UHGV virus genome: UHGV-0179687
Source of the DNA: a virus
DNA length: 36,267 bases
Strand: one strand, 5' to 3'
The notes below the pieces were generated by a model, which saw only the letters and a list, made by a program, of their open reading frames with translations, did not search any database and had not been told where the DNA came from. Below, piece by piece: positions 2,217 through 36,267 of the stretch. The position numbers and the translations under genes were made by a program. Positions within the stretch are counted from its first letter, which is position 1. Each line of letters begins with the position of its first letter.

Positions 2217-3437
2217 TTATAGTGTGGGGTTATCTATCTTTTTATATTCAAATAGCATATCAATACTTCTTTCGAGTTTGTAAAAATCAGTTAAGGGGTA
2301 TAGTTTTACAATGTCCTCTTCGAAGTTTTTAATTCCAGACAGTTTTTCTTGACTTTGAAGATATCTCTTTGACATCATCAATTCTATTGAATTTTCTGTT
2401 ATTGATGAATGATCTAATGTTTTTAAGACCTGCCACGAAATAGGTGGCGTAAAGTCGAATAATGTGGAGAGTTTAGGGCAAAAATTTTGTTTTACCGTTT
2501 GTTCATATGTAACTTTGGGTGGAAATACAACATTTATTGAGCGGTTACTTAATCGTGAATTAGGCATTTTTGTAGAGAAGTAAGCTACACCGACAATTTT
2601 CGAGTAAGTTTTTCTACTAATCCATTGCATCAACAAATTAGGGATAATGTACTCTTGTATGAATGTTGCAGAACGATGATTTTTTAAATAATTACATGCA
2701 ATAATTAAAGGCCAGAAAATGAGATAAGAGGCCTTTACTCTATTTGTTTCGGCTAGTTTATTTTCGTCAGCGTAATCTGGTGAGGGATGTAACAAAAGCT
2801 GTGATGCAAAGTTTAAGACTTTATATTCAGTTTCACTGGTAGTAAATGATGAAATAAAAAGCTTGTCAAAATCTGGTTTTTCCATCTCCTGCCAACAAAC
2901 ATAAACCGAAGTGCCAAGATATAAACATGGTAAGCCAGCGACTGAATATCTTTGTGCACTAACAAAATGTCTATTGGAGAATGGAATATGGAAAATTTCA
3001 TCTCTTGACGTTAGAGGATTTTCACTTTTTCTAACTCGAAATAATGGTTTTTTATGATTGCAAATGCTACTGAGTGGAGTAGTGATGCGATGTATGTGTT
3101 GGATTGTTGAGTTATCAGAGAATGTTTTATCAAAGTGGTCATATGCTGACTTGATATCACCTGATAAAAAACTTTCAAGTGATAATGTTATTCCATTTTG
3201 AATGTTCTTAACTTTGCTGATTAATTCATCAAAATTCGGCATCCCATCTTTATTGTTGCTTTTGTATTTAATTATTGTTTTTAGATACTTATCGCAACGT
3301 TCAGTGAAGTCACTTATTATATCTCTATGTACTATAAGTGGAGGGTTTAATTTTGGTTCGGAAATGACTTGTTTTAATAATGAGTTTAAATGGTTCTCAA
3401 ATAACTTTTCTTTATTGACTTTGTTTTTAATATCCAT
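2217..3437 (-). CDS. hypothetical AT-rich cargo protein, 406 aa, with a possible RES-like motif
   Basis: Long minus-strand ORF starting 10 nt after the int stop. Hand-counted G+C about 27-30 % against about 55 % in the structural genes. Segment PFSNRHFVSAQRYSVAGLPCLYLGTSVYVCWQEM resembles the Arg / LY-L / Glu pattern of RES domains; this is weak and from memory. Confidence 0.6.
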   Translation of the reverse strand: MDIKNKVNKEKLFENHLNSLLKQVISEPKLNPPLIVHRDIISDFTERCDKYLKTIIKYKSNNKDGMPNFDELISKVKNIQNGITLSLESFLSGDIKSAYDHFDKTFSDNSTIQHIHRITTPLSSICNHKKPLFRVRKSENPLTSRDEIFHIPFSNRHFVSAQRYSVAGLPCLYLGTSVYVCWQEMEKPDFDKLFISSFTTSETEYKVLNFASQLLLHPSPDYADENKLAETNRVKASYLIFWPLIIACNYLKNHRSATFIQEYIIPNLLMQWISRKTYSKIVGVAYFSTKMPNSRLSNRSINVVFPPKVTYEQTVKQNFCPKLSTLFDFTPPISWQVLKTLDHSSITENSIELMMSKRYLQSQEKLSGIKNFEEDIVKLYPLTDFYKLERSIDMLFEYKKIDNPTL

Positions 3438-3447
3438 TTTGATAAGC

Positions 3448-4467
3448 TCAAATAGTTAACATATGTAAAGGGTTTTTGGTAACGGCATCTTCAAGATGGT
3501 CTGGGGAAAAATGAGAATAAACCATTGTCATTTTTATATCTGTATGACCGAGAATCTCTTTAAGAACAAGTATGTTTCCTCCGTTCATCATAAAATGGCT
3601 GGCAAATGTATGACGTAATACATGGGTGCATTGACCCTCTGGAAGCTCAATACCGGCCCGCTTTACTGCACGCTCAAAGGCTTTTCTGCAGGGCGAGAAT
3701 AACTTCCCTCGGTTTTTAGGAAGTTCGTTGTACAGCTCCTGAGATATCGGCACGGTACGGTTTTTCTTGCCCTTCGTCTTGGTATAAGTGATGCGGTATT
3801 TGGATAACTGATGGCCCTGCAGTTTTTCGGCTTCACTCCACCGTGCGCCGGTAGCTAAGCATATTTTGGTAATCATTAGTAGGCTCGGGCTTTGAGATTC
3901 AGCACATGCAGCCAACAGGCGTTTGATTTCCTCCGTGGAAAGAAAGGCTAGTTCACCTTCAGCAATTTTAAATGTTGGAAGCCCGGCAAGAGGGTTGGGG
4001 GCTGACCAGTGGCCCAGCTTTTTCAGTGTACCAAAAACCGATGATAGGTTGCGTTGTTCAAGGTTTACCGTGCGGGGCTTAACGGGCGACATCAGCGTGC
4101 CATCTTCATTTCGCACTTCACCTTTTAGCCGTGCTTCGCGGTATTTCGTAAAGTCACCGGCAGTCAGCTCTGAAGCGATGGGATCGCCCAGACCATTACA
4201 GATAATTCCAAGTTTCGCCATGAGTCGCTTGGGGTCTGCGAGTGTCTGACCATACAGGGAATACCACAGCTCAATTAATTCTGATAGGCGTCGCCGATCA
4301 TCCTTTTCACCCAACCACGGTTTTTTATTCACTTCTTCCATTGTGAAGCTTTCAAACGCAATGGCTTCGCCTTTCGTGGCAAATTGCTTACGCACGCGCT
4401 TGCCATTGCGTCCATTGGGATAGCACTCACACAACCATTTTCCGTTCGGCTGTTTTCTGATGGTCAT
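3448..4467 (-). CDS. int: P2-type tyrosine integrase
   Basis: 339 aa. N-terminal RNGKRVRKQF, then TGARWSEA, HVLRHTFASHFMMNGG and LGHTDIKMTMVYSHF (Arg, His-x-x-Arg, catalytic Tyr), typical of P2 Int. Confidence 0.9.
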   Translation of the reverse strand: MTIRKQPNGKWLCECYPNGRNGKRVRKQFATKGEAIAFESFTMEEVNKKPWLGEKDDRRRLSELIELWYSLYGQTLADPKRLMAKLGIICNGLGDPIASELTAGDFTKYREARLKGEVRNEDGTLMSPVKPRTVNLEQRNLSSVFGTLKKLGHWSAPNPLAGLPTFKIAEGELAFLSTEEIKRLLAACAESQSPSLLMITKICLATGARWSEAEKLQGHQLSKYRITYTKTKGKKNRTVPISQELYNELPKNRGKLFSPCRKAFERAVKRAGIELPEGQCTHVLRHTFASHFMMNGGNILVLKEILGHTDIKMTMVYSHFSPDHLEDAVTKNPLHMLTI

Positions 4468-11183: not shown

Positions 11184-11402
11184 ATGTCAAGTATCGCCGC
11201 ATTGAAGCTGGGTAATCCAGTTGAACGTTTGGCACGGGTTCTGAAAGAGAACCAGGACAAGCTCAATCTGAGTAAAGATGGTTTTGTGTCCGTAGATTTG
11301 TCCAACGAAGAAGCTATGAAAGCCATCCGAGATCAGATGGATAAGCTTGAAGGCATCAAAACGAGCACTGTTAAAGCAAAATATTATTACAGAACCCGAT
11401 AA
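11184..11402 (+). CDS. small soluble hypothetical protein (first gene of accessory pair)
   Basis: 72 aa, strong RBS aaggaggg. Stop overlaps the next start (TAATG). Confidence 0.6.
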   Translation: MSSIAALKLGNPVERLARVLKENQDKLNLSKDGFVSVDLSNEEAMKAIRDQMDKLEGIKTSTVKAKYYYRTR

Positions 11403-12244
11403 TGGCAACATTACTTTTAGCAGTGATTTTGGTTAGTGGTTTTATATATGTAAACCTATCACTTTCAACACGTTATAGATATAAGCGTTCCAATGGCTGG
11501 GACGCTTATTTTTTTGTGGCTGCATGGGGAATTGTCTTTTTCCTCGCTGGCGGCTTCCTTACCTTCGCTCTTAACATCAGCGGTGGGTTTCGCTGGTTTT
11601 CTAATGCGCTGAATCTGACTCCAGACAGCTTTAACGGGATGTTATCCACCACAACCGATAAACCGCAGCGCATCAATGAAATTAAGCAAATCGCGTGGGT
11701 TGTGATTTCAATAGTTCTCGCGGCGCTGTTCGGTTGGCTAAACAAACGCCGTACTTCAAAGGGGGATCGCCGTTGGGATGCACTGGCAAAGGCAGTGGGA
11801 AACAATGCTTTTGAATCGCTGCTCATGGAAGCATCAGCTCGCCAGTTTCCTATCATTGCTACACTTTCATCACGCAAAATCTATGTAGGGCTGGTGACTT
11901 GCCCTGCGTTGGAAAATGGATTGTCGGAACACCTTGAAATTCTCCCCTTGCTGAGCGGATATCGTGATAAAGACGACCTAACGATAAATATCACGACAAA
12001 CTATCATCAGCACTATCTTGATAGCGGTGTTATCAATGGGATGTCGCGCCTGAATATCCAGGATTTCCGTGTGCTTCTCCCTAAAGATGAAGTTGAAACC
12101 ATCTCGTTTTTTGATACTGAAACGTATAACAAATTTAAAGAAAACGAAGCGCGTGACCGGAAAGACTGCCGCAAGTTGGGTGGTAAAAAGCCATCCGCAC
12201 GCAGGAGAAAGACTGCTGGCGACGCAGAGCAGGGTAGTGCATGA
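11402..12244 (+). CDS. membrane protein with three N-terminal hydrophobic helices and a C-terminal soluble domain
   Basis: 280 aa. Hydrophobic segments LLLAVILVSGFIYVNLSL, YFFVAAWGIVFFLAGGFLTFAL and IAWVVISIVLAALFGWL, then about 170 soluble residues and a basic tail. Confidence 0.65.
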   Translation: MATLLLAVILVSGFIYVNLSLSTRYRYKRSNGWDAYFFVAAWGIVFFLAGGFLTFALNISGGFRWFSNALNLTPDSFNGMLSTTTDKPQRINEIKQIAWVVISIVLAALFGWLNKRRTSKGDRRWDALAKAVGNNAFESLLMEASARQFPIIATLSSRKIYVGLVTCPALENGLSEHLEILPLLSGYRDKDDLTINITTNYHQHYLDSGVINGMSRLNIQDFRVLLPKDEVETISFFDTETYNKFKENEARDRKDCRKLGGKKPSARRRKTAGDAEQGSA

Positions 12245-12459: not shown

Positions 12460-13893
12460 ATGATCCAGCCAAAAGTTTTTATATCCTATAGTTGGTCAAG
12501 TAAAACTCATCAGCAACATATCAAAGATATGGCTGAACGATTGGCGGCAGATGGAGTTGAAACTGTCATAGATATTTATGACTTGAAAGAAGGGGATGAT
12601 AAAAATTATTACATGGAAAGAATGGTTCAAGATGAAACGGTTACGCATGTTTTAGTCATTTGTGATAAAAAATACTCAGAAAAAGCCGATTTAAGAAAAG
12701 ATGGTGTCGGTGTTGAGTCGATGATAATTTCCCAGGAAATATATTCATCCGTGTCGCAGTCCAAATTTATACCATTAATATTTGAGTACAAAGATAATGG
12801 AGAGCCGTATACTCCAATCTTTCTGAAGTCTAGAATCTATATTGATTTTTCAACGCCAGAAAAAGAAAATGATAATTGGGAGCGTTTAATCAGGTTGCTT
12901 TATGGAAAACCAGAATTTACTAAGCCACCATTAGGTAAGCCTCCGGTTTATTTAGAGCAAGACACGTCAAAACCGACGTATGAAATTCATGCAAAATTTC
13001 AAACTTTAAAATCAGCTGTCTTAAATCAAAAGCAGACATTAAAGGATTGCAGAAGGCAATTTTTAGAGGTGTGCCGAAATTATTGTATCTCACTACAAGT
13101 CGTAACAAACCCAACTACTGAAGATTTTGCAGCGGAAGTTTTGCAAATTCATAAAGAGCTTATTGCCGTTAGGGATGCCATTACAGACTGGGTTTTACTT
13201 GAGGGTGATACGCAGGGCGAAGACTTTTCCAAAGCACTATTACAGTTTATGGAAGTAATGTTAGCGATTAGAAATCGTCCGAAAAATGTAAATTCATATA
13301 ATGAAATATGGTTTTTGCCCCATCAGATTTTTGCGTATGAAACGTTTTTATATATTTTGGCGGCTTTAATAAAAATTGAAGCTTTCCAGCATGTACATAC
13401 ATTACTGCATACATCTTATTTGCTACCCGATCATATAACCAGTCCGGGAATGGAGTTTGCTAATTACAGTGAGTTATATTTAAGCTCTGATTACCTTCAA
13501 AGTAAATTGTCCCCTGAAAACTATCGACTGTATTCCCCTGTTGCTGAGTTAGTAAAGCAAAGTGCAACTAGAGATGATGTGTCTTTCGATGATTTGAAAC
13601 AAGCTGATCTTGTTGCTCTTATGATATCCTTCATTAATCCCGGTATTTTTTGGTACCCGCAAATGTTGTTGTATTCCGGGCACTATGAGAAATATCCTCT
13701 ATTTACAAGAGCAATACAGCATAGAGGATTCAAGAGTATTGCAGTTATTACCGGAATCGATGACAGTAAACTTTTGGCTCAAAAGCTGACAGAGGGTGAG
13801 GCCCAGCGAAATACTAATAACTGGTATCATTTCGGTTTTAATAGAGACTTTCTCAATAAAATGAATGTTAGTCGTCTAGATAGTATTGAATGA
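12460..13893 (+). CDS. TIR-like domain protein with an unrecognised C-terminal domain
   Basis: 477 aa. N-terminus KVFISYSWSS...VLVICDKKYSEK...GVGVESMI fits a TIR/TIR-like fold signature (FISYS strand, later acidic residue). RBS aagggagg. Hand-counted G+C about 27-35 %. Confidence 0.7.
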   Translation: MIQPKVFISYSWSSKTHQQHIKDMAERLAADGVETVIDIYDLKEGDDKNYYMERMVQDETVTHVLVICDKKYSEKADLRKDGVGVESMIISQEIYSSVSQSKFIPLIFEYKDNGEPYTPIFLKSRIYIDFSTPEKENDNWERLIRLLYGKPEFTKPPLGKPPVYLEQDTSKPTYEIHAKFQTLKSAVLNQKQTLKDCRRQFLEVCRNYCISLQVVTNPTTEDFAAEVLQIHKELIAVRDAITDWVLLEGDTQGEDFSKALLQFMEVMLAIRNRPKNVNSYNEIWFLPHQIFAYETFLYILAALIKIEAFQHVHTLLHTSYLLPDHITSPGMEFANYSELYLSSDYLQSKLSPENYRLYSPVAELVKQSATRDDVSFDDLKQADLVALMISFINPGIFWYPQMLLYSGHYEKYPLFTRAIQHRGFKSIAVITGIDDSKLLAQKLTEGEAQRNTNNWYHFGFNRDFLNKMNVSRLDSIE

Positions 13894-33202: not shown

Positions 33203-33684
33203 TGATGGTGCTGGGATTATACGTGTTTATGCTGCGCACCGTGCCGTATCAGGAGCTGCAGTATCAGCGCAGCTGGCGACATGCGGCTAACAGCCGGGTT
33301 AACCGACGCCCGTCAACGCAGTTTCTGGGACCGGATAACGACATGCTGACGCTTTCTGGCGTTCTTATGCCGGAAATAACAGGCGGCAGGCTGTCGTTGC
33401 TGGCACTGGAGCAGATGGCAGAACAGGGGAAAGCATGGCCCCTGATTGAAGGCAGCGGCACGATTTACGGCATGTATGTGATTGAGGGACTGAATCAGAC
33501 TAAAACGGAGTTTTTCCGCGACGGTATGCCGCGCAGGATTGAGTTCACCCTGTCGCTAAAACGCGTGGATGAATCCCTGTCCGATATGTTCGGTGATCTC
33601 AGTGCGCAACTGAATAATCTGCAGGGAACGGAAACATCTGCCTTAAGCGATATCAGTAAAACGGTGGGAGGGCTGCTGTCGTGA
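33199..33684 (+). CDS. U: tail protein U
   Basis: 161 aa, overlapping the T stop. Confidence 0.85.
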   Translation: MMMVLGLYVFMLRTVPYQELQYQRSWRHAANSRVNRRPSTQFLGPDNDMLTLSGVLMPEITGGRLSLLALEQMAEQGKAWPLIEGSGTIYGMYVIEGLNQTKTEFFRDGMPRRIEFTLSLKRVDESLSDMFGDLSAQLNNLQGTETSALSDISKTVGGLLS

Positions 33685-34781
33685 ATTTCAGCTCTGAACT
33701 GCTTAACAAAGGCAACAAAACTCCGGCATTCAGCATCAGTATTGAAGGCAGGGATATCACCACTGTGCTGGACAACCGCCTGATGGGGCTGACGCTGACG
33801 GATAACCGGGGATTTGAAGCGGACCAGCTTGATCTGGAGCTGGACGACGCCGATGGAAAAATCGTGCTGCCGCGCCGTGGTGCGGTCATTACGCTGGCGC
33901 TGGGCTGGAAGGGGCAGCCGCTTTTCCCGAAAGGGGCATTCACGGTGGACGAGATTGAACACACTGGCGCACCGGACCGCCTGACTATCCGGGCGCGAAG
34001 TGCTGATTTTCGGGAAACCCTGAATACCCGCCGTGAAAAATCGTGGCATAACACCACCATCGGGGAAGTGGTGAAGGAAATAGCCGCGCGGCACAAGCTG
34101 AAGATGGCACTGGGTAAAGAGCTGTCGGATAAGCCCGTGGAGCATATAGACCAGACTAATGAGAGTGACGGCAGTTTTCTGATGCGACTGGCGCGACAGT
34201 ACGGTGCCATCGCGTCGGTGAAAAATGGCAATCTGTTATTCATCCGGCAGGGGCAGGGCAAAAGCGCCACTGGTAAACCACTGCCAGTGATCACTATCAC
34301 ACGCAAGGACGGCGACAGTCACCGCTTTACCCTGGCAGATCGCGGAGCCTACACGGGCGTAATTGCCAGCTGGTTGCATACCCGTGAACCTGCGAAGAAA
34401 GAAAGCACCACGGTGAAGCGTAAGCGCAGAACTAAGAAGCAGAAGAAAGAGCCGGAAGCGAAGCAGGGCGATTACCTGGTGGGTACGGATGAAAACGTGC
34501 TGGTACTTAATCGCACTTATGCCAACCGGAGCAACGCCGAACGAGCGGCGAAAATGCAGTGGGAACGCCTGCAACGCGGCGTTGCGTCATTCTCGCTACA
34601 ACTGGCGGAAGGGCGGGCAGATCTCTACACGGAAATGCCAGTGAAAGTCAGTGGCTTTAAACAGCCGATAGATGATGCGGAATGGACTATTACCACCCTG
34701 ACGCATACTGTCAGCCCGGATAACGGTTTTACGACCAGTCTGGAGCTTGAAGTGAAGATTGATGATTTCGAAATGGAATGA
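33681..34781 (+). CDS. D: tail protein D
   Basis: 366 aa, overlapping the U stop. Last late structural gene. Confidence 0.85.
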   Translation: MNFSSELLNKGNKTPAFSISIEGRDITTVLDNRLMGLTLTDNRGFEADQLDLELDDADGKIVLPRRGAVITLALGWKGQPLFPKGAFTVDEIEHTGAPDRLTIRARSADFRETLNTRREKSWHNTTIGEVVKEIAARHKLKMALGKELSDKPVEHIDQTNESDGSFLMRLARQYGAIASVKNGNLLFIRQGQGKSATGKPLPVITITRKDGDSHRFTLADRGAYTGVIASWLHTREPAKKESTTVKRKRRTKKQKKEPEAKQGDYLVGTDENVLVLNRTYANRSNAERAAKMQWERLQRGVASFSLQLAEGRADLYTEMPVKVSGFKQPIDDAEWTITTLTHTVSPDNGFTTSLELEVKIDDFEME

Positions 34782-34871: not shown

Positions 34872-35090
34872 ATGATGATTTGCCCACTGTGTGGAAGTGC
34901 CGCCCATACTCGCAGCAGTTTTCAGGTATCTTCATTGACCAAAGAGCGTTACAACCAGTGCCAGAACATTAACTGCAGCCATACTTTTGTTACCCATGAA
35001 ACTTTTGTTCGTTCGATTGCAACGCCAAAAGAGTCAAATCCGGTTCAGCCGCATCCTCATAAATTTAAACAGGTGGGTTTGCCGATTTAA
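34872..35090 (+). CDS. ogr: Ogr/Delta-type zinc-finger late-gene activator
   Basis: 72 aa, MMICPLCGSAAHTRSS...ERYNQCQNINCSHTF, with the Cys-x2-Cys...Cys-x4-Cys spacing of P2 Ogr. Confidence 0.85.
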   Translation: MMICPLCGSAAHTRSSFQVSSLTKERYNQCQNINCSHTFVTHETFVRSIATPKESNPVQPHPHKFKQVGLPI

Positions 35091-35351
35091 ATGGCGACAT
35101 AACTACATGATTTAAAACTATACTTTTCTATAAGTTGAGGTTAAATTAACAATGCCTGACGTTAGCGGGGATTTATCCCCACTCCGTAGATATGTAGTTT
35201 GTCGCTTTGCGACTGCGGACCGATTACCTGATTGCCATGTAATCGGACGCCGACTTGTTAAGCTTTCTGGGCTAACTGGTTGTTATTTTTTATTTAGTTA
35301 GGGCCATGCGCTTGCGCTAAGAGACGTCAGGTATCTATGGAGGAACAAGTT

Positions 35352-35525
35352 ATGGATACAAACGAACTTGGCTTAGTTAAGGCGCGTGTTGAACTGATCA
35401 CCGCTATGCTCAAATGCGCAACCGCGTTTGTTGGCTTAGTTGGTGCGGTTTACGCCGTTCTTAACATGGCCTTCAACTACAACAATTTAACTCATGACAA
35501 TAGAAGTTCAAAGGTGGGAAGATAA
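35352..35525 (+). CDS. small hydrophobic protein upstream of the reverse transcriptase
   Basis: 57 aa from the ATG at 35352, with ggagg 8 nt upstream. One long hydrophobic segment (ATAFVGLVGAVYAVLNMAF). Its 3' end overlaps the RT start by 32 nt. Coding status is uncertain. Confidence 0.4.
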   Translation: MDTNELGLVKARVELITAMLKCATAFVGLVGAVYAVLNMAFNYNNLTHDNRSSKVGR

Positions 35526-36267
35526 ATTTGAGATTAAGCCCGGGGTTTGGGTTTATGTCCCAAGCGTTGAGGCACGTAAAGTCGGAGGGAAGATACTTCA
35601 GGCTGTCAGAAACAAGTGGATTCCGCCACTCTATTTTTACCATCTAAGAACTGGTGGGCATCTTAAAGCTGCCAGATTACACTTAAAAAGTGATTTTTTT
35701 GCCGTTGTTGATATTAAACAATTTTTTCAGTCAACGAGCCGTAGTCGTATCACCCGTGATCTAAAGAGCTACTTCACCTATTCTCAAGCGCGGGAAATCT
35801 CAACATTTTCAACTGTAAGAAACTTGTCCCATAGTCCACATAAGCATGTCCTCCCTTTTGGTTTTGTTCAATCTCCAATACTTGCAACCCTCTGCTTAGA
35901 TAAAAGTTATTTTGGTAGCTTACTACGCCGATTGAACAAACATCATGATCTCAAGCTAAGTGTGTTTATGGATGATGTGATCATCTCGTCAAACGATTTG
36001 GCCCAATTACAAGCGGCTTACGACGAAGCACTAGTGGCAATGCGTAAATCTGGTTATCAAGCCAACATGAGTAAAACTCAGGCACCATCGTCAAAGATTA
36101 GCGTGTTTAATTTAACTTTGAGTAAGGGAGTTATGAAAGTCACATCTCAGAAAATGAGTGACTTCCTGATTGATTTCTATTCAAGCAATTATGAGCCGCA
36201 CAGAATAGGGGTCAAAAACTACGTCGAAGCTGTTAATCCAGGGCAAGCGAAACTCTTTAAGTTGTAA
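35494..36267 (+). CDS. compact reverse transcriptase
   Basis: 257 aa with RT motifs in order: FFAVVDIKQFFQST (motif A Asp), LPFGFVQSPILATLCL (motif B'), LSVFMDDVIISS (motif C, x-M-D-D), ...MSKTQ (motif D). Hand-counted G+C about 40 %. Confidence 0.75.
   Translation: MTIEVQRWEDKFEIKPGVWVYVPSVEARKVGGKILQAVRNKWIPPLYFYHLRTGGHLKAARLHLKSDFFAVVDIKQFFQSTSRSRITRDLKSYFTYSQAREISTFSTVRNLSHSPHKHVLPFGFVQSPILATLCLDKSYFGSLLRRLNKHHDLKLSVFMDDVIISSNDLAQLQAAYDEALVAMRKSGYQANMSKTQAPSSKISVFNLTLSKGVMKVTSQKMSDFLIDFYSSNYEPHRIGVKNYVEAVNPGQAKLFKL

Follow-up and report, generated by a model that had tools for sequence, protein, structure and literature searches.

A compact retron-like reverse transcriptase, its structured RNA and a small-protein gene at the ogr end of a P2-like prophage

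Introduction

What kind of system is formed when a structured leader, a tiny hydrophobic open reading frame (ORF) and an unusually small reverse transcriptase (RT) follow one another on one strand at the end of a prophage? The question is raised by positions 35,091 to 36,267 of the virus genome UHGV-0179687, a stretch of 36,267 nucleotides that was analysed at its full length and is called the window below. An initial annotation had described here a noncoding stretch with three short hairpins, a 57-aa ORF and a 257-aa protein with RT motifs, and had read them as a retron-like or defence-RT-like locus, its class being left open. All of these features are found where they had been placed, and the reading is supported by the affinities of the RT, by the conservation of the 57-aa small protein (SP) and by that of the upstream RNA.

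The window is a P2/186-like prophage with an RNA–SP–RT module at its ogr–att end. Very probably, this module combines an RT of the retron lineage with its cognate noncoding RNA (ncRNA) and a small effector. With slightly better than even confidence, it is read here as a minimal, Type VI-like retron that would have dispensed with a helix-turn-helix (HTH) gene and would serve as anti-phage cargo of the prophage, a single transcript acting as template, riboregulator and toxin mRNA. The family is apparently undescribed in the searchable literature and profile libraries; unpublished or unsearched data sets may hold it. Literature searches on compact, minimal or new retron types and on RTs at the P2 ogr end returned nothing matching, and WP_000151541 is absent from the supplementary files of 10.64898/2026.04.27.721009, RT tree included.

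A compact reverse transcriptase of the retron lineage

The RT motifs proposed for the 257-aa protein are borne out by a hidden Markov model (HMM) search, in which it matches RVT_1 (Table 1). Its catalytic motif is F158-M-D-D161, and the start of its ORF overlaps the SP ORF by 32 nt. The small size that had been remarked on is a conserved trait of the family. There are 72 relatives among 5.8 billion proteins searched, almost all of 250–260 aa; a phmmer search of 1.84 billion cluster representatives gave 519 matches at E<1e-3 and 158 clusters (50% identity) at E<1e-30, nearly all of 245–265 aa. When one genome per species was scanned, 80 loci turned up, distributed over gamma-, beta- and alpha-proteobacteria and a few metagenome-assembled genomes; their RT ORFs are mostly of ~250–275 aa, the exceptions being a few that are broken or miscalled. 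The RT family is discrete and uniformly compact. That the protein might be the truncated remnant of a longer RT gene, a possibility raised with the initial annotation, was examined and is ruled out by the uniform size of the homologues (245–265 aa) and by an alignment to the RT of Retron-Eco1 (Ec86) that extends from fingers to thumb.

Invariant across the family are D73 of motif A, the QSP motif, D160-D161 and F205-N206. FMDD (35965–35976, residues 158–161) is the allele of E. coli and of Klebsiella phages, and all 39 other aligned members have a tyrosine at its first position; Tyr-to-Phe is a conservative change in the active-site loop.

Comparison with proteins of known structure points to retrons. 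By sequence, the top entries of the PDB are without exception retron RTs, Ec86 coming first (E=4e-12) and Eco8, Kva2, Ec78, Ec67 and Ec83 after it. The window RT is collinear with residues 59–295 of Ec86; compared with a standard retron RT it is short of ~45 residues at the N-terminus and ~25 at the C-terminus. Retron RT models are likewise the top PADLOC matches for all 40 of the 40 family members compared, none of them strong (50–85 bits); the scores of the window RT are 63 bits (RT_VI), 54 bits (I-B) and 52 bits (IX), and the best family-level E-values are 1.9e-24 for RT_VI and 4.6e-24 for I-B. The RT is of the retron lineage and, on these modest scores, represents a deep branch of it, which agrees with the retron-like character first suggested for the locus.

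Assignment to any of the PADLOC retron types tested, to the UG or defence-associated RTs (DRTs), to the Abi RTs, to group II introns or to CRISPR-associated RTs was considered and is not supported, as no profile gives a member-like score. The best UG/DRT profile for the window RT is UG33 (33 bits, E=5.7e-9), and at family level UG17 (E=3.3e-15). Drt3a reaches 17.6 bits against a 200-bit cut-off, and the group II intron maturase model TIGR04416 reaches 23 bits against 300.

Two signature motifs of retron RTs are NAXXH, in region X between RT2 and RT3, its H being the best-conserved residue, and VTG, in region Y of RT7, its G being the best conserved; the VTG triplet directs the RT to its msr (PMC7736814). 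In the present family the counterpart of NAXXH, aligned to NNATPH of Ec86, reads xAxxxH, with H63 invariant, A59 conserved in at least 90% and the Asn absent. VTG is aligned to V-F-N both against Ec86 and against the RT of phage KS5, the G being replaced and F205 and N206 being invariant.

A conserved RNA with the element order of a retron

Between ogr and the SP start lie 261 nt (35091–35351) that hold no credible ORF. The description of this whole interval as a structured leader stands from ~35141 onwards; its first ~50 nt (35091–35140) are promoter or spacer instead. Folding exceeds what chance would give, with z-scores of -3.3 for the leader and -4.0 for leader and small ORF together. A covariance model, R1, was built from 16 diverse homologous leaders. 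In the window it has a single match (105.6 bits, E=1e-28; Table 1), with nothing else significant in 36 kb. Across 48 genomic loci, 16 of them the training loci, it gives one full-length match per locus, abutting the SP start, and in an independent test it matched 36 of 38 IMG/VR viral loci. A search of Rfam over 2 kb around the locus returned only ssrA/tmRNA (the tmRNA and permuted-tmRNA models) and sub-threshold chance matches.

Table 1. Features of the RNA–SP–RT module, with positions in the window. SD, Shine-Dalgarno; SL, stem-loop; MFE, minimum free energy; cDNA, complementary DNA.
Feature	Position	Strand	Remarks
Probable sigma-70 promoter	35119-35147	+	-10-like TAAATT 35142-35147; weak -35-like TATACT 35119-35124
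Retron-like noncoding RNA (msr–msd analogue), a1 to a2	35152-35334	+	Covariance model R1 match 35141-35354
a1 AUGCCUGACGUU	35152-35163	+	12 bp with a2
UAGC directly 3' of a1	35163-35166	+	Family consensus ..GGCGAUAGGC..
SL1 hairpin GGGGA UUUA UCCCC, msr-like	35167-35180	+	In MFE and centroid folds
Anti-SD segment CUCCGUAGAUA	35182-35192	+	11 bp with 35332-35342 (UAUCUAUGGAG)
SL2 hairpin GUCGC-UUU-GCGAC	35201-35213	+	Family consensus GUCAC-UNU-GUGAY
Variable hairpin region, candidate msd stem-loop(s)	35214-35292	+	Includes CCGAUUAC/GUAAUCGG 35222-35246
Conserved 3' block UUUAGUU..CCAUGCGCUUGCGCUAAGAG	35293-35322	+	Predicted cDNA template start
a2 GACGUCAGGUAU	35323-35334	+	12 bp with a1; last 3 nt common to SD-strand helix
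SD strand UAUCUAUGGAGG	35332-35343	+	Contains SP Shine-Dalgarno GGAGG 35339-35343, 8 nt before ATG 35352
SP, 57 aa (MDTNELGLVKARVELITAMLKCATAFVGLVGAVYAVLNMAFNYNNLTHDNRSSKVGR)	35352-35525	+	WP_000380485.1; good SD upstream
Compact retron-like RT, 257 aa	35494-36267	+	RVT_1 E=2e-21, 77 bits vs 29.6 cut-off; stop is last base of window

The initial annotation had found no convincing a1/a2 inverted repeats. Such repeats do exist (Table 1) and covary across the 48 loci. The 16-leader alignment, folded with RNAalifold, contains CCUGAC/GUCAGG, CCUGGC/GCCAGG, CCGGCGA/UCGCCGG and CUUGGC/GCCAAG at this helix, whose 8-bp core is paired in 94.5% of cells and has compensatory changes in seven of its eight pairs. 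SL2 is paired in 96.5% of cells and also shows compensatory changes, from A-U to G-C. When the two helices are pooled in the 48-sequence alignment, the paired fraction of cells is 95.3%, compared with 84.2% for shuffled alignments, and 96 cells are changed on both sides against 26 (0/500 shuffles for each measure); sliding the partner strand by 1–3 columns lowers pairing to 29–47%. Cognate a1 and a2 strands also form better helices than non-cognate ones (p=3.6e-21, 41 non-redundant loci). The leader belongs to the retron-like locus as a conserved RNA closed by these covarying repeats.

Further elements are found between the repeats. Directly after a1 stands a conserved UAG(C/G), which in many loci is also able to pair within SL1; its G35165 is a candidate branching or priming guanosine, by analogy of position with canonical retrons (PMC7736814). 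At the position of SL1, other loci have a hairpin of variable sequence. The region that follows SL2 is unconserved in sequence and 31–85 nt long, and folds as a hairpin at the majority of loci (z relative to shuffles: median -1.79, window -3.25). It is followed by a near-invariant block, GUUGGUU-N7-CAUGCGC-N2-3-GCGCUAGG in the 48 loci. The predicted elements, in the order a1, G motif, SL1, a single-stranded segment (35182–35192), SL2, variable hairpin, 3' block and a2, are arranged as in a retron msr–msd.

The RNA–SP–RT unit probably has its own promoter, as suggested by cross-locus conservation only: the 48 aligned loci repeatedly show TAnnnT at 6–8 nt before a1, and TTGnnn another ~17 nt upstream of that box. 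A strict scan of the leader for the sigma-70 consensus found no promoter on the + strand of the E. coli version.

A small protein behind a covarying Shine-Dalgarno helix

The proposal that the small ORF is part of the system is upheld by its conservation: directly upstream of the RT, in ~70 of the 80 loci, there is an equivalent ORF of 35–72 aa with a good Shine-Dalgarno (SD) sequence, ending just inside the RT start. SP and RT overlap in every case, by a median of 32 nt. The SPs share a build consisting of a short, usually basic N-terminus, a hydrophobic stretch of ~30 residues, of helix length, and then an Asn-Tyr pair; among 47 SP sequences Y43 is invariant and N42 is conserved in at least 90%. 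A membrane-type character had been proposed for the window SP, whose KD19 maximum is 1.94. This holds in so far as 32 of the 47 SPs reach transmembrane-like hydropathy, but most carry ~2 charged residues in that segment, so that a membrane helix is likely, not certain. No match to the SP was found in Pfam, PADLOC, NCBIfam or PHROG.

In-frame fusions of SP and RT occur in Klebsiella pneumoniae (P0036, 302 aa) and Serratia proteamaculans (P0019, 309 aa; alignment A1), from which it is argued that SP and RT act together. No member of the family is more abundant than the Klebsiella fusion, for which 173 sequences were counted, on at least 1000 contigs.

The ribosome-binding site (RBS) of SP is predicted to be sequestered by a covarying helix between the SD strand and an anti-SD segment located just after SL1 (Table 1). 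Other loci have strands that differ in sequence and yet remain complementary, namely CCUCAUC/GAUGAGG, CCUUAUCAAG/UUUGAUAAGG, CCUUUCAC/GUGAAAGG, CCUCUAUUC/GAAUAGAGG and UACCCAUCC/GGAUGGGUA. In the comparison of cognate with non-cognate strands over the 41 non-redundant loci, p=4e-15 was obtained for this helix, against p=0.013 and 3e-4 for control region pairs.

Comparison with Type VI retrons and other systems

Type VI retrons are ncRNA–SP–HTH–RT operons (10.1101/2025.10.22.683967; 10.64898/2026.04.27.721009), with Retron-Vpa2, Retron-Eco12, Retron-Sen3, phage KS5 gp44/gp45 and ST147-VIM1phi7.1 as named examples. In Retron-Vpa2, SP is a toxin co-transcribed with the msr–msd as a 'hybrid RNA' (hyRNA) in which its RBS is sequestered, and multicopy single-stranded DNA (msDNA) accumulates only on infection, derepressing SP translation (10.1101/2025.10.22.683967). 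In Retron-Sen3, SP is constitutive and is restrained by the HTH protein (10.64898/2026.04.27.721009). For comparison, genuine Type VI loci were retrieved from the phages KS5, Klebsiella ST147-VIM1phi7.1, P2_2H1, Shewanella MuM16-1, Pasteurella Pmp14 and Yersinia vB_YenM_56.17.

The module has much in common with these systems. A structured ncRNA, a small protein and an RT follow in this order on one strand; RNA structure hides the SP RBS, here as predicted from covariation; the RT is compact, the PADLOC RT_VI model having 279 positions; and P2-like phages are frequent carriers. The SP build is shared as well: genuine phage Type VI SPs are of 48–54 aa, with a polar or basic N-terminus and a hydrophobic helix ending in L-V/L-N-Y/F-F (for example ...RLFDLITRLVNYFEGGDE), and the window SP has ..AVLNMAFNY.., so that the C-terminal N-aromatic motif is common to both. 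Residues K15, I39, V43 and Y45 of the phage Type VI SPs are at positions mutated in Vpa2.

There are also differences. The window RT is 20% identical to KS5 gp44 and has VFN in place of VTG. A Cro/C1-type HTH gene lies between SP and RT in ~78% of Type VI members, whereas here there is none and SP and RT overlap. R1 finds no significant match in the RNAs of KS5, ST147-VIM1phi7.1 and P2_2H1. The a1/a2 repeats of the Vpa2 hyRNA wrap around the SP coding region, whereas here they close an RNA upstream of SP. Finally, the site in the prophage is the rep–portal hotspot or the tail region for Type VI and the ogr–att junction here. The module would therefore be Type VI-like on paper, yet by sequence comparison it fails Type VI membership on RT clade, HTH and RNA family. 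A repeat at 35171–35190/35508–35527 was considered as a mimic of the Vpa2 'wrap-around' and was discarded, as it is only 70% complementary.

Canonical Type VI retrons (SP–HTH–RT) are themselves cargo of P2-like phages, namely ST147-VIM1phi7.1 (L134, 906–2334), P2_2H1 (L135, 1121–2786), Yersinia phage vB_YenM_56.17 (L138, 884–2304) and KS5 (L084, 1145–2736). Their sites are different ones, either the rep–portal hotspot or the interval from gpS to gpV among the tail genes. P2-like phages carry two different RT-plus-small-protein systems at different positions.

Retron-Eco1/Ec86 shares with the module a collinear RT and an ncRNA directly upstream of it; in both, a1/a2 enclose hairpins of the msr type and one of the msd type that varies, and a conserved G-containing motif follows a1. 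The window RT is ~60 aa shorter, lacks VTG and has an altered NAXXH, and in contrast to canonical retrons the effector lies between RNA and RT and its SD is predicted to pair with the msr. Type IV Retron-Eco6/Ec48 also has a small membrane-type effector, and the RT clade 3 neighbourhood is reported to be common to Types IV and VI; there, however, the effector is larger, with two transmembrane segments, and the RT is normal-sized. No RT_IV model is among the best 25 of the 47 PADLOC matches of the window RT.

DRT2 (UG2) has a similar look, a small RT with a structured upstream RNA, which is reported to be reverse-transcribed on infection (PMC12039810, PMC11100668). It has no separate effector ORF, the toxic gene being made by the cDNA, and the window RT has no significant UG2 match in PADLOC. 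Another RT moron of P2-like prophages, Orf570 of P2-EC30 (Abi-P2), is reported to be linked to phage exclusion (cited in PMC3091744). It differs in its RT lineage (Abi, 570 aa, non-retron) and in its hotspot, and no Abi or UG model of PADLOC matches the window RT well.

Genomic context and distribution

The module follows gpD (33681–34781) and ogr (34872–35090; Pfam Ogr_Delta, E=6.7e-22) at the end of the window. It had been said that neither att nor ssrA follows ogr. This is correct within the window, because the window ends at the RT stop codon, but not beyond it: E. coli C2 has the same sequence (99.8–100% identical), with ssrA on the opposite strand 108 nt past the RT stop. This places the module within the prophage, with ogr on one side and the attachment site on the other.

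Among 5426 complete E. coli genomes, 33 carry the module, against 1153 with the ogr-containing query region. Of these 33 carriers, 21 are intact, seven have an IS421 insertion, four have an 82%-identical variant and one is partial. IS421, of the IS4 family, lies at ~35168 within SL1 (for example L002 4834–5946, E. coli WP4-S18-ESBL-08), where it parts promoter and a1 from the remaining RNA, SP and RT, and probably inactivates the module. In the variant (H68–H71, for example NZ_CP058725.1 1495795–1496564), similarity spans the RNA, SP and the first 40% of the RT, the rest of the RT being beyond megablast detection; it may have arisen by recombination or be the module's second allele.

The gpD–ogr pair is directly upstream of the module in 13 IMG/VR contigs, and many other IMG/VR matches are at contig ends, several of these contigs being 33–37 kb long. 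At the genomic loci, gpD or ogr is nearby in only 3 of 80. A Pfam search of 88 flanking ORFs gave a heterogeneous set that includes integrases, resolvases, MobA, Mrr and AbiEii-type ATPases, with an HTH (HTH_3) in only two of the 88; a tRNA gene is within the fetched flanks of about a quarter of loci. When every ORF lying within 3 kb of 79 loci was clustered by BLAST, the only clusters were those of SP, and thus no conserved third gene emerged. This context is the pattern of mobile defence cargo.

Loci from Rhizobium, Sinorhizobium and Aminobacter (L060, L065, L066, L068, L069, L071–L073) have a differently patterned leader with a conserved CUCUCAGUUGACGACUCC...GGGUUGCAGUUUGCUG, and the alpha-proteobacterial leaders are mostly missed by R1. 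Eight alpha-proteobacterial loci have in common a 239-aa ORF just downstream of the RT on the opposite strand, either a lineage-specific partner or mere synteny.

Proposed mechanism and alternative explanations

On the favoured reading, one transcript would be made from the module's own promoter, its first ~183 nt forming the msr–msd-like RNA, followed by SP and then by the overlapping RT. The RT would bind this RNA and copy its msd part into single-stranded cDNA, with priming beside the a1:a2 helix and the conserved G in UAG(C/G) as its probable site. In the uninfected cell SP would remain untranslated, its SD being paired to the msr segment. Infection would alter the cDNA level or the fold of the RNA and so free the SD, a step for which the msDNA-dependent derepression in Retron-Vpa2 is a precedent. 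SP would then be made, and its hydrophobic helix would arrest or kill the cell, aborting the infection.

More tentatively, and at somewhat less than even confidence, the module could represent a new retron type, a candidate '14th', with two genes, without an HTH, and with an RT (~255 aa, VFN) smaller than any other of the retron lineage encountered in this analysis. It is about as tentative a suggestion that, in such a type, the ~370-nt RNA would be cDNA template, riboregulator and toxin mRNA at once, competition or a pseudoknot between a1:a2 and anti-SD:SD coupling priming directly to the release of the toxin with no regulator protein taking part.

Several observations weigh against a Type VI-like retron. 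On RT_VI the window RT reaches only 63 bits. The HTH–RT pair of Burkholderia phage KS5 was used for calibration, and there gp44 reaches 260 bits (E=4.6e-78) on this model and gp45 117 bits on HTH_VI; the window RT falls outside the profile of the Type VI clade, and the family as a whole favours no retron type clearly. Type VI retrons have an HTH protein that keeps both reverse transcription and SP toxicity in check, and it is missing here. The resemblance between the SPs is striking, and an hhalign comparison of the 47 SPs with five phage Type VI SPs is collinear and aligns the N-aromatic motif, but is not significant (P=0.004, probability 8%). With VTG missing and NAXXH degenerate, RNA recognition and priming may differ from those of retrons. 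The E. coli allele has FMDD, in contrast to the Y(M/V)DD of its relatives, including ones 66–83% identical, and single-sequence AlphaFold (pLDDT 32) gave no usable 3-D model. The a1:a2 and anti-SD:SD helices cross, sharing 3 nt in E. coli, and hence would have to form a pseudoknot or alternative folds. Lastly, IS421 interrupts the RNA in 7 of the 33 E. coli carriers, which shows that the module is dispensable, or perhaps costly.

Four other explanations have to be weighed. The first is a classical retron toxin–antitoxin system, in which SP, made constitutively at a low level, would be neutralised post-translationally by the RT or by RT–cDNA until interference by a phage frees the toxin. Such a model has been put forward for Retron-Sen3; here the RT would take the place of the missing HTH. 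Retron-Sen3, itself of Type VI, does have constitutive ssDNA and post-translational control, the constant overlap of SP stop and RT start suggests coupled, stoichiometric synthesis, and the natural fusions imply physical association of the two proteins. The explanation is nonetheless thought unlikely: a covarying helix that buries the SD argues for control of translation itself, and no antitoxin-type HTH is present.

Secondly, the RT could be a non-retron, DRT-like enzyme that copies the 3' block repeatedly or carries out protein-primed or untemplated synthesis, with a1:a2 as a scaffold only. The missing VTG and degenerate NAXXH, and the absence of the ~45 N-terminal and ~25 C-terminal residues of Ec86, would be in keeping with such an enzyme, as would the 3' block, whose invariance is unusual for an msd; compact ncRNA-dependent DRTs do exist, DRT2 being an example. 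Against this, the UG/DRT scores, those of UG33 and Drt3a included, are far under those of the retron models, and the RNA has its elements in retron order: a1, G motif, msr hairpins, variable hairpin and a2. It is regarded as improbable.

Thirdly, the leader might be a cis-acting regulator in the 5' untranslated region of an SP–RT operon, never itself reverse-transcribed, the RT using other templates or serving the prophage. Occlusion of the SD is indeed the RNA function best supported from sequence, and a site beside att and ogr could reflect a role in the phage life cycle. However, RNA, SP and RT strictly co-occur in chromosomes, in one plasmid record (L005) and in unrelated prophages, independently of P2 genes; P2-like phages are usually without the module, as the E. 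coli counts show; and an a1:a2-closed RNA of ~180 nt is far more elaborate than SD occlusion needs. This explanation is given little credence.

Finally, it is very improbable that SP is not a toxin but the detached N-terminus or a cofactor of the RT, SP and RT together making up a normal retron RT of ~310 aa: the window RT does lack the N-terminal ~45 aa of Ec86 and the Klebsiella and Serratia fusions are of typical retron RT length (302–309 aa), yet the SP profile has no similarity to a Type VI RT, N-terminus included (probability 0.1%), SP matches no PDB chain, and its basic tip, hydrophobic helix and N-aromatic motif resemble toxic Type VI SPs and not RT N-termini.

Other cargo of the prophage

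A second defence gene is present in the classic P2 hotspot between replication and portal genes, encoding a 477-aa bSEFIR protein (12460–13893, +; PADLOC PDLC03957, E=1e-102; Pfam SEFIR, TIR_2). Upstream of it, a 280-aa ORF (11402–12244, +) has no Pfam or PADLOC match, and its only match is PHROG 3630, of unknown function. A 406-aa ORF (2217–3437, -) beside the integrase (3448–4467) is likewise unmatched in Pfam and PADLOC and hits PHROG 7835 (E=3e-145), a group of unknown function; possibly the prophage carries additional cargo here, at its int end. Outside the P2-like int there is a truncated P4-type integrase of 275 aa (1063–1890, -), which has the Arm-DNA-binding and central domains and the first ~54 of 172 catalytic-domain positions only. 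Possibly it is what remains of an earlier island that occupied the ssrA site.

Implications

To the known hotspots for cargo in P2-like prophages, the ogr–att junction can be added as another site. Since retron HMM sets assign the family to no type, defence-system annotators probably miss it. For retron-based genome editing, in which size counts, so compact an RT (~255 aa) and its defined RNA partner hold practical interest. If the favoured reading is true, the module would be the simplest known form of a logic in which reverse transcription switches on a toxin, consisting of one RNA, one protein of 40–60 aa and an RT of ~255 aa, with no regulator. Its small size would make tractable how cDNA synthesis could free the RBS of a toxin, as only two short helices are involved.

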